DNA of 64,000 bases from Escherichia coli (lineage in GTDB: Bacteria > Pseudomonadota > Gammaproteobacteria > Enterobacterales > Enterobacteriaceae): assembly GCF_044324875.1 (NCBI RefSeq), contig NZ_CP172185.1, one strand, 5' to 3'. Both the position numbers and the translations under genes were made by a program. Of the stretch, positions 23,367 to 26,900 are shown piece after piece (position 1 is the first letter of the stretch; every line of letters begins with the position of its first letter). Below the pieces are notes generated by a model. The model worked only from the letters and a program-made list of their open reading frames with translations. It had not been told where the DNA came from and did not search any database.

Positions 23367-23747
23367 TACGCTTAAAGCATTCAGGACTTGTGCTGTTTTG
23401 CGTTTTCCGTGGAGATGGAGGGTTATACCGTCAGAGCTAATAATTTGTCGACTGCATCTCCATCCGCAAGGTAACTGTAGAAGTGTCTGGTGATGCTGCC
23501 AACTTACTGATTTAGTGTATGATGGTGTTTTTGAGGTGCTCCAGTGGCTTCTGTTTCTATCAGCTGTCCCTCCTGTTCAGCTACTGACGGGGTGGTGCGT
23601 AACGGCAAAAGCACCGCCGGACATCAGCGCTATCTCTGCTCTCACTGCTGCGTATTCCGCTCTATTCGATCACGGATTGGCATCGAAGTCCGATCAGCGA
23701 TTCGCATCCATTCGATCAACCGGGAACTTAACTTTTTCTACCGCTTT

Positions 23748-24503
23748 TTAACGCGTTTTTTCGCTGCTTTCCACTACCGGGGGATTTTTCCTCAGTGACT
23801 CTCCCTGAAGGACCACTCGGTGTGAGTTATGTACCAGTCTGTCCAGGATGGCATCTGCTGTTGTTGGGTTCTCCATCAGACCATGCCATTTATCTACCGG
23901 GAACTGGCTTACCACTATCGTGCTGCTTTGTCCGTAACGATCCTCTATGAGCTCCAGAAGGTCATTACACTGGGCGTTACTTAACTGTTCCAGCCCCAGA
24001 TCGTCCAGGATTAGAACCTGTATTTTTTGCAACTGTTTCAGATATTTCAGCCAGCTGCCATCAACACGTCCCTGAGCCAGTTGTTCCAGTAATCGCCCGG
24101 TTCTACAGTACCGGACGCTGTGTTTCTGTCGACATGCCTGTTCGCCCAGCGCATTGGCTATCCAGCTCTTGCCACATCCTGTCGGACCGGTTATCAGCAG
24201 GTTTTTCCTGTGGGTTATGTAGTGGCCGTTCAGCAGTTCTCTCATCTGTTCAGCCCGCAGACCTCTTGAGGCCGGATAGCGCAGCCCTTCCGGTGTTGCC
24301 TGGTATTTCAGGCCGGCATTTTTTCTCAACCGTGCCACACGGCTGTTTTCCCTGCTCAGAAGCTCGTCATCAACCAGCAGCGTCAGCCTTTCCTCGAACG
24401 ACAGTTCGTCGTAGGTCTGAGGCGTTTCCCGCTGCCGTATCAGGCTCCCGGCCATCGCCGGGAGTTTCAGTTGGGTCAGTTTGTTTAACAGGTTATCACT
24501 CAT
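23748..24503 (-). CDS. istB: IS21-family helper ATPase IstB
   Basis: Start taken at [15 protein letters not shown]; Walker A GPTGCGKS, Walker B VLILDDLG. Confidence 0.85.
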
Positions 24504-24519
24504 ACTGTTGTTCCTTCTG

Positions 24520-26055
24520 TCAGTGGTAGTAGCCCGGACCACGCAGGTTTTCATGCTCTGAAGCATATGCCGGATGTTGTTCGCCCTGGCGGGATAATGG
24601 AAGCTCCAGGTTCTCCCGATGGTGACGCAGCAGATTGTCGATAAAGCGTCTGTCAGGGGCGTTATAGTGCAGGGCAACGTAACAGGCCTTTTCCAGCCGT
24701 TCCGGGCCGTATTTTTTCTGAAGTGCCAGCAGCCCCAGAACTGCACGATAAGCCAGTTCCGGATGGGGTTTTGCCTTCAGCATGGATTCAACCACCCGGC
24801 CTGTGGACGGGCCCGTACGTTTTCCCTGCTCGATCAGGCGTTCCGGTGTCCATGTCCCGTGCTGCCGGTGGCGCTCTGGCATGTGAAGCGGATTGGTTGT
24901 GTGTTTATATTCATGTGTGCTGCGCGGATGTTGCGCCACACACTGCCCCTTGTGCCAGAGCTGTACCACCGACTGCCCCGCCTTCAGTGACAGACGCTGA
25001 CCGACCAGTTCGTGTGGAACGGAGTACCAGTGACGGGCATATTCAACGTGGTAGTCAGGGCCAACCTTCACAGCTTTGTATTCCGTGTATTCATAAGGTG
25101 CCAGAGGCAGCGGAGAGAGTGCTGGCGCATCCAGTATGCGGAAGCGTTCTGCACGGGTTTGATTGCCGTACCCCTTCATTGGCCGGTTATTCATGTCTGT
25201 CAGTAACTCCCTAAGGCGCGCATTCAGCGCCCTGAGCGTGTGGAAGGTTTCATTACGGATGCGGGCAAGAAGCCATCGTTCAACGATGAGGACGCCGTTT
25301 TCTGCTTTTGGTTTATCTTTAGGTTTGCGTGGTCGGGCCGGGATGATAACCGTGCCATAGTGCTCAGCCAGTGCCTGATAACTGTCGTTGATGACAGGCT
25401 CATATCGATCGGCCTTTTTCACTGCGCTTCTGAGGTTATCGGGGATGAGCAGCTTCGGTACGCCGCCCAGGAAGGTCAGGCAACGGCTGTGGGCATTTAA
25501 CCATGACATCATGTCCTGACCTTCGCACGCTTCAACGTAGGTATAGTTGGACGCCCCCATTACGGCCACGAAGATTGCCACGCGGCGTATCTCACCGGTG
25601 TCCGGATTAATAACAGGAACCGTAGGACCACAGAAGTCGATAAAAAGCTTTTCGCCGGCACGATGCTCCTGGCGCATGGAGAGACGTCGCGTTTTTTTCC
25701 ACTCCCGGTAGCAACGGCAGAAGTGCGAGTATCCCATCGCTTTGTTACCCGCCTGTGCCTTGTATTCCATCCACAACAGTTGCCGCGTCACACCTGGTTT
25801 TCTCATTTCCGTATCGAAGTACAACATGTCAGGCATTACAAGCTCTGATGCAAAGGTGTCTTTGGGCGGAAAAATGAGTTTCTCCAGCGTGTCATGGGAT
25901 ATATCAGCAGGTAATGGCCATGACAGAGAAGAGGCTTTGAAGCGGGCAAGAACCTCAAAAACGGTTGAGGCGCTGATGTGTAACGTCAGTCCGATACAAC
26001 GGTTAGTCAGCTTCTTGTCGAACTTGAGCTGAAGGATCTTAAAACAGGTTTCCAT
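24520..26055 (-). CDS. istA: IS21-family transposase IstA
   Basis: Start taken at METCFKILQLKF; N-terminal HTH plus DDE-type core (FIDFCGP...YTYVEACE...). Confidence 0.8.
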   Translation of the reverse strand: METCFKILQLKFDKKLTNRCIGLTLHISASTVFEVLARFKASSLSWPLPADISHDTLEKLIFPPKDTFASELVMPDMLYFDTEMRKPGVTRQLLWMEYKAQAGNKAMGYSHFCRCYREWKKTRRLSMRQEHRAGEKLFIDFCGPTVPVINPDTGEIRRVAIFVAVMGASNYTYVEACEGQDMMSWLNAHSRCLTFLGGVPKLLIPDNLRSAVKKADRYEPVINDSYQALAEHYGTVIIPARPRKPKDKPKAENGVLIVERWLLARIRNETFHTLRALNARLRELLTDMNNRPMKGYGNQTRAERFRILDAPALSPLPLAPYEYTEYKAVKVGPDYHVEYARHWYSVPHELVGQRLSLKAGQSVVQLWHKGQCVAQHPRSTHEYKHTTNPLHMPERHRQHGTWTPERLIEQGKRTGPSTGRVVESMLKAKPHPELAYRAVLGLLALQKKYGPERLEKACYVALHYNAPDRRFIDNLLRHHRENLELPLSRQGEQHPAYASEHENLRGPGYYH

Positions 26056-26381
26056 AGTGCTCCTGGATTTTCTCTTTCTGGACATTGACGTCTCCACTGG
26101 TTTAAACACGGCAATGGAGACTGTGGTGAAAAGAGTTAATTCCCGGAGTGACTGGCAGGATGCCAATCAATGATCGGAAGCATGCCAAATCGTGATCGAT
26201 TGTGATGCCAAACTGTGATCGGAGATGGATGCCAAATCATGATCGATTCGAATGCCAAACTGCGATCGATTCAGATGCCATTTTGCAACTGCCGTAAAAC
26301 ATGGCAACTGCAGTTCACTTACACCGCTTCTCAACCCGGTACGCACCAGAAAATCATTGATATGGCCATGAATGGCGTTGG

Positions 26382-26885
26382 ATGCCGGGCAACTGCCCGC
26401 ATTATGGGCGTTGGCCTCAACACGATTTTACGTCACTTAAAAAACTCAGGCCGCAGTCGGTAACCTCGCGCATACAGCCGGGCAGTGACGTCATCGTCTG
26501 CGCGGAAATGGACGAACAGTGGGGCTATGTCGGGGCTAAATCGCGCCAGCGCTGGCTGTTTTACGCGTATGACAGGCTCCGGAAGACGGTTGTTGCGCAC
26601 GTATTCGGTGAACGCACGATGGCGACGCTGGGGCGTCTTATGAGCCTGCTGTCACCCTTTGACGTGGTGATATGGATGACGGATGGCTGGCCGCTGTATG
26701 AATCCCGCCTGAAGGGAAAGCTGCACGTAATCAGCAAGCGATATACGCAGCGAATTGAGCGGCATAACCTGAATCTGAGGCAGCACCTGGCACGGCTGGG
26801 ACGGAAGTCGCTGTCGTTTTCAAAATCGGTGGAGCTGCATGACAAAGTCATCAGGCATTATCTGAACATAAAACACTATCAATAA
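26382..26885 (+). CDS. insB: IS1 InsB reading frame (normally expressed as InsAB by frameshift)
   Basis: 167-aa ORF matching IS1 InsB ([25 protein letters not shown]...[21 protein letters not shown]). Confidence 0.85.
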
Positions 26886-26900
26886 GTTGGAGTCATTACC

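Follow-up and report, generated by a model that had tools for sequence, protein, structure and literature searches.

Insertion sequences (ISs) of the IS1 family are 768 bp long and carry imperfect inverted repeats of approximately 23 bp, as well as two genes, insA and insB', which an A6C −1 frameshift site connects; an 8–9-bp target duplication is typical of a simple IS1 insertion and does not define the family. Members of the IS21 family duplicate 4–8 bp of their target, typically 5 bp, and one of these, ISSso4, is listed in ISfinder and was first named in Shigella sonnei. The IstA transposase of IS5376 has the catalytic residues D124, D187, and E233, and the terminal direct repeats of IS21 are spaced 23 bp apart (PMC10122671); a terminal CA and 5-bp target repeats have been described for IS21-family elements (PMC10122671, PMC11208146). 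Nested, or "connected", ISs represent a standard class in S. sonnei, ISSso4 included (bioRxiv 10.64898/2026.03.18.712784).

The window analyzed here is a stretch of 64,000 nucleotides from an E. coli chromosome, and it contains an IS1 that is split by a 2639-bp block (Table 1). A single transposition of ISSso4 into an older IS1, i.e., a textbook case of nested transposition, is very probably the origin of this arrangement. The first-pass annotation had described an IS1 that is continuous except for a 2639-bp block carrying istA and istB, with the pentamer ACTGC on both sides of the block; this description is accurate, including all coordinates and numbers. The break in insA lies precisely between codons 35 and 36, with ISSso4 inserted right after Cys35, the final Cys of the InsA zinc ribbon, and the ISSso4 genes are located on the minus strand, antiparallel to insA and insB. 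InsA residues 1–35 match Zn_ribbon_InsA (Pfam; E = 2.5e-20), and the right part of IS1 matches DDE_Tnp_IS1 (Pfam; E = 4.5e-77) as well as NF033558. Both IS1 ends are intact despite the insertion (first letters GGTGATGCTGCC at 23489, last letters GGAGTCATTACC at 26900), and the inverted repeats are now 3,412 bp apart. Because insA is split after Cys35, this IS1 copy can produce no InsA and no InsAB' transposase, and it is no longer autonomous.

Table 1. Features of the nested insertion and its surroundings, in positions of the window.
Feature	Position	Strand	Description
IS3-family element, taken to be IS629	21361..22670	+	1310 bp, within the ISL3 fossil, 3-bp duplication GAG
ISL3-family transposase fossil	22668..23366	-	left of IS1; DDE_Tnp_ISL3 (Pfam) E = 1e-15
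IS1, left part	23489..23648	+	left inverted repeat, promoter region, insA codons 1–35; insA start at 23544
First ACTGC copy (target pentamer)	23644..23648		terminal 5 bp of the IS1 left part
ISSso4 (IS21 family), complete	23649..26287	-	2639 bp, termini 5'-TGCGTATT...ATTTTGCA-3'
istB-proximal terminal repeats	23649..23720	-	the ~20-bp unit again, two to three times, CGATCA-N-ATTGGCATC
istB	23748..24503	-	intact 251-aa AAA+ helper ATPase; NF038214 257.8 bits (cut-off 200)
istA	24520..26055	-	intact 511-aa DDE transposase; NF033546 284.7 bits (cut-off 160)
istA-proximal terminal repeat array	26160..26287	-	six copies of a ~20-bp unit, ATGCCAAA-N-GATCG
Second ACTGC copy of the target-site duplication	26288..26292	.	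strand not assigned
IS1, right part	26293..26900	+	insA codons 36–91 (to 26463), A6C frameshift motif, insB' 26382–26885, right inverted repeat
Probable IS256-family transposase fossil	26901..27050	+	last 49 codons only, directly at the IS1 right end

Removal of the block together with one ACTGC copy restores an IS1 of 768 bp (160 + 608), in which the features of the IS1 family are all present, including insA (91 aa), insB', a frameshift site (TTAAAAAAC) at position 305 of the restored element, and imperfect terminal inverted repeats (identical at approximately 17 of the first 23 positions). Aligned to an annotated IS1A-family copy (L002), the restored element gave a gapless match at 99.35% identity; the copy described here shares the anatomy of IS1A and differs from it in that its insA is interrupted, rendering the copy defective, and in that it lacks an 8–9-bp target duplication. 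This match of the restored anatomy to IS1 exceeds chance by far.

When the restored IS1 was compared together with its flanks (1368 bp), 20 complete E. coli genomes contained it as one contiguous alignment of 99.6–99.9% identity and so present natural empty sites; one transposition into a pre-existing IS1 within insA, as initially claimed, is supported by these genomes, in which an uninterrupted IS1 has the same flanks. Compared with the uninterrupted IS1 that E. coli Br_112_kylling has at this chromosomal site, the restored element shows a single base difference. At the comparator locus L013, both flanks are 100% identical to those in the window, as is the left part of IS1 as far as 23648, and the two alignments of the window to L013 overlap in ACTGC alone (L013 4456–4460). 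Neither the 5,426 complete E. coli genomes nor the 72,556 PLSDB plasmids contained a 101-bp query spanning the left nested junction.

Assignment of the insert to the IS21 family, proposed from the sequence alone, was upheld, as IstA and IstB both scored above the respective NCBIfam cut-offs (Table 1). All features of the family are present, including the gene order (istA followed by istB, 16 bp apart on one strand), a DDE triad, TG...CA termini, repeat arrays, and a short target duplication. In IstA, residues D140, D206, and E252 align with the catalytic D124, D187, and E233 of IS5376 IstA (alignment with PDB 8q4d/8b4h); the protein also matched Mu-transpos_C_2, and its score for the Pfam domain rve (32.1 bits) was just below the cut-off of 32.6 bits. 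IstB matched IstB_IS21 (Pfam; E = 1e-60), is homologous to the solved IstB of IS5376 (PDB 8q3w/5bq5), and presents a Walker A motif (GPTGCGKS) at residue 106 and a Walker B motif (LILDD) at residue 164. The repeats in the istA-proximal array start 22–24 bp apart and are presumed to be IstA binding sites. Simple inverted repeats were also considered for the ISSso4 ends; an ungapped comparison revealed little identity beyond TGC, and arrays of short repeats fit better. ISSso4 resembles IS5376 and IS21, the family members characterized in biochemical and structural work, in its istA-istB operon, aligned DDE triad, AAA+ IstB, terminal CA, multiple terminal direct repeats approximately 23 bp apart, and 5-bp target duplication. 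However, its proteins are distant from those of IS5376/IS21 (E of approximately 1e-13 for IstA and 1e-24 for IstB), its IstA is longer (511 aa versus approximately 400 aa), it has six istA-proximal repeats rather than two, the element itself is longer (2639 bp), and the duplications among its copies range from 4 to 7 bp.

The insert is most probably ISSso4 specifically, as indicated indirectly by the PGAP name of an identical IstB, "IS21-like element ISSso4 family helper ATPase IstB" (WP_001282653.1), which is annotated in the plasmid copy L004; the IstA of that copy (WP_045147483.1) is identical as well. The 2639-bp DNA is 100% identical to copies annotated on both plasmids and chromosomes of E. 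coli, among them three plasmid copies (L003–L005) over the full length, and nine further copies showed 99.66–99.96% identity with identical termini. These 12 comparator copies share the termini TGCGTATT...ATTTTGCA and are located at unrelated sites with duplications of 4–7 bp, indicating that the duplication length of ISSso4 is variable and not fixed at 5 bp. The intact 5-bp target duplication reported in the first-pass annotation is present, as ACTGC, and falls within this range. No shared target motif was obvious by eye among the 13 duplications. At least 80% of the ISSso4 length is covered by a match in 225 of 5,426 E. coli genomes, with up to 23 places per genome, and 232 plasmid records carry such a match; no second copy was found within the 64-kb window. 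Many ISSso4 copies sit beside other ISs. Close pairs of IS1 and ISSso4 in three records (H26, H28, and H40) turned out to be neighbours and are not nested at the site described here. With intact genes, intact ends, and 100% identity to other copies, the copy in the window is apparently active; nothing in the element itself sets it apart, and only its site, inside the insA of IS1, is new to the collections searched for the left junction.

The IS1 lacks a target duplication of 8–9 bp, its left flank being GAAGTGTCT and its right flank GTGTTCCCG. The earlier claim that this IS1 has no target duplication and abuts an IS256-like fossil is correct for the duplication, as the flanks differ, and probably so for the fossil, whose L013 counterpart (L013 5069–5218) PGAP labels a partial IS256 family transposase. 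In the alignment to E. coli P19_598 (L001), the left flank stops at 3489 and the right flank resumes at 5460, precisely where IS1 begins and ends in the window, and IS1 stands in place of L001 3490–5459 (1,970 bp), a segment that takes in the greater part of an IS256-family transposase gene; P19_598 does not represent a direct ancestor (its right flank is only 92.7% identical), and the deletion thus describes a comparison rather than a reconstructed event. The absence of this segment relative to P19_598 suggests an IS1-associated deletion, and the missing target duplication of IS1 would be due to this loss. The identity of 92.7% refers to window positions 26901–28286 and L001 5460–6891, where L001 carries the 3' end of the IS256-family gene; the full-length gene in L001 (4401–5608) is frameshifted. 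On its own, the 49-aa stump matched nothing in Pfam or NCBIfam, and its assignment to IS256 comes from the comparators.

Further elements are located to the left of IS1. The ISL3 fossil matched NF033550 (E = 3.8e-46) with 157.9 bits, i.e., under the 180-bit cut-off, and the PGAP annotation of both L001 and L013 lists it among frameshifted pseudogenes. The IS3-family element, which we take to be IS629 based on its OrfA sequence, was inserted 818 bp upstream of IS1 and is missing from L013. An Rfam scan of positions 21000–29500 identified only the ALIL frameshift pseudoknot (RF01497; 21696–21812; 116 bits) in IS629, and nothing in IS1 or ISSso4. The first-pass annotation had counted at least three layers of IS activity at this site, which is borne out and too low, as ISL3, IS256, IS1, ISSso4, and IS629 are all represented within approximately 6 kb.

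Both IS1 and ISSso4 are multicopy in E. coli (IS1 with a median of approximately 10 places per genome), and "connected" ISs are hard for short-read assemblers (bioRxiv 10.64898/2026.03.18.712784), such that a repeat-induced chimeric join of ISSso4 into a collapsed IS1 consensus would be conceivable. We nevertheless regard such an assembly artefact as highly improbable: IS1 and ISSso4 have no common homology for a false join, the junctions fall at the exact end bases of a complete TG...CA element, the IS1 parts sum to 768 bp, and 5 bp of IS1 sequence are perfectly duplicated around ISSso4; a misjoin would not give rise to a target-site duplication. Even less credible, with hardly any probability left to it, is a composite arrangement in which two independently truncated IS1 fragments, left by separate insertions or deletions of IS1, flank ISSso4 by chance. 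IS1 and ISSso4 do adjoin without nesting on several plasmids; however, the two IS1 parts in the window are perfectly complementary (160 + 608 = 768 bp), have the same orientation, and overlap only in the 5-bp duplication. The 20 genomes with an uninterrupted IS1 at this locus, together with the 5-bp overlap against L013, already refute this explanation.

Somewhat less remote, yet still very unlikely, is a transposition of ISSso4 into another IS1, in the same genome or on a plasmid, followed by recombination or gene conversion to the present locus. IS1 copies are abundant and highly similar, making this mechanistically possible, and the IS1 in the window is one base off the same-site copy in Br_112_kylling. 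This difference of 1 base in 768 is, however, the only one between the two copies; in addition, 2.6 kb of heterology would have to be copied with just 160 bp of homology on one side, and the left junction is present in no record of the two large collections (5,426 genomes and 72,556 plasmids).

Under direct transposition of ISSso4 into this IS1, the older IS1 would have been located between the ISL3 fossil and the 3' stump of the IS256-family gene, in a chromosomal island of an E. coli lineage associated with poultry, and a full-length, apparently functional ISSso4 would then have jumped into it once. By homology with other IS21-family elements, whose biochemistry is established, an IstA tetramer would pair the multi-repeat ends of ISSso4 and expose the terminal 3'-CA, an IstB AAA+ decamer would capture and bend the target DNA with low sequence specificity, IstA would cut the target with a 5-bp stagger, and gap repair would produce the duplicated ACTGC. 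The locus shows IS256, ISL3, and other fossils as the earliest layer, followed by IS1 with the adjacent loss of 1,970 bp relative to P19_598 and then by ISSso4; IS629 is a separate, recent nearby insertion.

With an IS inside an IS and an intact duplication, this locus resembles other nested ISs of Shigella and E. coli, which are commonplace in genomes rich in ISs, with no notable difference; nested transposition of known elements implies no new biology. It is very improbable, though conceivable, that InsAB' from other IS1 copies, acting in trans, could move the 3.4-kb IS1::ISSso4 as a composite, or that ISSso4 or its IstB may prefer IS clusters, given the many copies beside other ISs; if the composite did move, ISSso4 would have a second, independent route of mobility. 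The data at hand support neither composite mobility nor targeting of IS clusters; the left junction is present in no record of the two collections searched, and the 13 targets have no shared motif that is obvious by eye. Annotators should mark this IS1 copy as insA-disrupted and the ISSso4 copy as complete, and the significance outside annotation is small. The locus is a clean case in which the succession of IS events is resolved in full; it shows recent activity of ISSso4 and IS629 in this poultry-associated lineage, and their two private insertions could act as strain-specific markers.

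Across window positions 23489–26900, direct reading of the sequence revealed an IS1 element, beginning GGTGATGCTGCC and finishing GGAGTCATTACC, that is interrupted by a foreign block. Joined together, the two IS1 parts measure exactly 768 bp; the restored element gives a gap-free alignment with an annotated copy of the IS1A family (99.35% identity), retains an intact frameshift site (TTAAAAAAC), and encodes a normal 91-aa InsA. In the interrupted copy, both IS1 ends are intact and insA is broken exactly between codons 35 and 36, directly after the last Cys of its zinc ribbon; neither InsA nor the InsAB′ fusion transposase can now be produced from this copy. 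Re-reading this layout reproduced every number of the first-pass annotation (i.e., the 2639-bp block, ACTGC on either side of it, and the IS1 span).

Features of the nested insertion and its surroundings (window positions)
Feature	Position	Strand	Description
IS3-family element	21361–22670		complete, 1310 bp
ALIL frameshift pseudoknot (RF01497)	21696–21812		116 bits; in IS3-family element
IS1, left part	23489–23648		last bases ACTGC at 23644–23648
Chimeric ORF	23544–23798		84 aa, left by the insertion
Insert	23649–26287		2639 bp; first bases TGCGTATT, last bases ATTTTGCA
IstB ORF	23748–24503		251 aa; NCBIfam IstB helper-ATPase model, 257.8 bits (cut-off 200)
IstA ORF	24520–26055	minus	511 aa; NCBIfam IS21-family transposase model, 284.7 bits (cut-off 160)
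istA-proximal terminal repeats	26160–26287		six short repeats, starts 22–24 bp apart
Second ACTGC	26288–26292
IS1, right part	26293–26900
Putative IS256-family transposase remnant	26901–27050		last 49 codons
Helix-turn-helix ORF	27320–27775	minus	151 aa; sigma factor-like helix-turn-helix DNA-binding protein by PGAP in comparators
YadA-like trimeric-autotransporter ORF	27837–29438	minus	533 aa, internal repeats

The insert is assigned to ISSso4, a catalogued element treated in the published literature; PGAP names the identical IstB "IS21-like element ISSso4 family helper ATPase". This protein also matches Pfam IstB_IS21 (E = 1e-60) and carries Walker A (GPTGCGKS) and Walker B (LILDD) motifs. 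Both insert proteins are homologous to the solved IstA and IstB structures of IS5376, whose IstA catalytic residues D124/D187/E233 align with D140/D206/E252 of the insert IstA (PMC10122671). The termini are TG...CA, and the istB-proximal end has two to three short repeats; these spaced arrays match the published multi-repeat architecture of IS21 ends, with its 23-bp spacing (PMC10122671). From end to end, the insert DNA matches the copies on three fetched plasmids at 100% identity; nine further copies are 99.66–99.96% identical, and all 12 comparator copies have the same termini. Among 5,426 complete E. coli genomes, 225 carry an ISSso4 match covering ≥80% of the element length, as do 232 plasmid records. 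Because genes and ends are intact and the sequence is identical to widely dispersed copies, the sequence suggests that this copy was recently active and is probably still functional.

At unrelated sites, the 12 comparator copies are flanked by duplications of 4 bp (n = 2), 5 bp (n = 4), 6 bp (n = 4), and 7 bp (n = 2), a range that includes the 5-bp ACTGC at the IS1 site. Some of the longer duplications may be chance extensions; those of 6–7 bp are commoner than expected if a fixed 5-bp stagger were merely lengthened by chance. No obvious target consensus was seen on inspection of the ISSso4 duplications, in line with the published lack of strong sequence specificity in the IS21 family. Repeats of 5 bp, the length found here, have been reported for members of the IS21 family both in vitro and in vivo (PMC10122671, PMC11208146). 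By analogy with these systems, the repeat-bearing ISSso4 ends would be synapsed by an IstA tetramer, the target DNA would be bound and bent by an IstB decamer, and 5-bp staggered cuts followed by repair would yield the ACTGC duplication (PMC10122671, PMC11208146).

An empty-site query of 1368 bp, assembled in silico from the 768-bp IS1 with 300 bp of flank on either side, was searched against the same 5,426 complete E. coli genomes; it gave one contiguous alignment, at 99.6–99.9% identity, in 20 chromosomes, many of them from chickens. PGAP annotates these sites as an ISL3 pseudogene, an IS1A-family transposase gene, and a partial IS256 transposase, in that order. Against one such locus, in Br_112_kylling, window 19000–21360 and 22671–23648 are 100% identical and 26288–28276 is 99.65% identical; the restored IS1 differs from its same-site counterpart by one base. 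The alignments flanking the insert share exactly 5 bp (ACTGC, locus positions 4456–4460), which, with the perfect copies at both insert ends, bears out an intact target duplication. A 101-bp probe for the left nested junction found no record among the same genomes or 72,556 plasmids. Since empty sites exist and this junction occurs in no searched record, these comparisons indicate that IS1 was present before ISSso4 and that the ISSso4 insertion is private to the source strain or a narrow lineage. In the chicken isolate GPEC1040 (NZ_CM142794.1), an uninterrupted IS1 site (461065–462432) lies ~12.5 kb from a 100%-identical ISSso4 (445898–448536) on the same chromosome; a nearby copy of this type could be the kind of donor for the insertion.

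Misassembly as the source of the nested structure is very unlikely, because IS1 and ISSso4 have no common sequence for a false join and a misjoin would not place a perfect duplication precisely where a complete element ends. That two independent IS1 fragments flank ISSso4 is excluded, given exactly complementary IS1 parts and the existence of empty sites; these sites instead support insertion into a pre-existing IS1, here within insA. Judged from the 64-kb window, it is highly improbable that an already interrupted IS1 moved here from elsewhere by gene conversion.

As the first-pass annotation also stated, IS1 itself lacks a target duplication and adjoins an IS256-like fossil. No 8–9-bp duplication is present, the flanks read directly being GAAGTGTCT and GTGTTCCCG; the standard explanation for such a loss is either an adjacent deletion mediated by IS1 or recombination of one IS1 copy with another. 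The 49-codon stump alone had no HMM match; its homolog in Br_112_kylling is called a partial IS256 transposase by PGAP. The P19_598 chromosome carries a homologous island without this IS1, to which the window aligns up to locus position 3489 on the left and from 5460 on the right, with breaks exactly at the IS1 ends. The 1,970 bp replaced by IS1 in the window hold, in P19_598, a partial pseudogene of the integrase-core type, along with most of an IS256-family transposase gene that is full-length and frameshifted. The right flank of P19_598 matches at only 92.7% identity, so this strain is not a direct ancestor of the window island; the 1,970-bp deletion accordingly describes a difference between the two sequences and does not reconstruct an event. 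Downstream in Br_112_kylling (8928–9368, roughly window 30,800–31,500), PGAP annotates another IS1-family transposase pseudogene, which is degenerate and too diverged from IS1A for blastn detection within the window.

The IS3-family element, which we take to be IS629 from its OrfA sequence, lies inside the ISL3 fossil, 818 bp from IS1. A 3-bp duplication (GAG) flanks the element, and each of its ends shows 14 identical terminal bases. The Br_112_kylling sequence, otherwise identical at 100%, lacks it, which makes it a second private, recent insertion. In P19_598, an ISSso4 copy (locus positions 7256–9894, 99.85% identity, duplication CCATAC) lies ~2 kb downstream in the homologous island, within the YadA-like adhesin gene; ISSso4 thus struck the same island independently in two lineages. 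In the window the YadA-like ORF has an open reading frame; it carries a frameshift in Br_112_kylling and is disrupted by ISSso4 in P19_598. Its repeat region varies between strains, and segment 28405–28617 matches several offset Br_112_kylling positions spaced ~99 bp from one another. The helix-turn-helix protein encoded just upstream may be a regulator of this gene.

Both the observation and the interpretation of the first-pass annotation, nested insertion of an IS21-family element into IS1, are correct. The site is a textbook case of one known element, ISSso4, nested in another, IS1, inside a decayed cluster of ISs, an event already known in kind.
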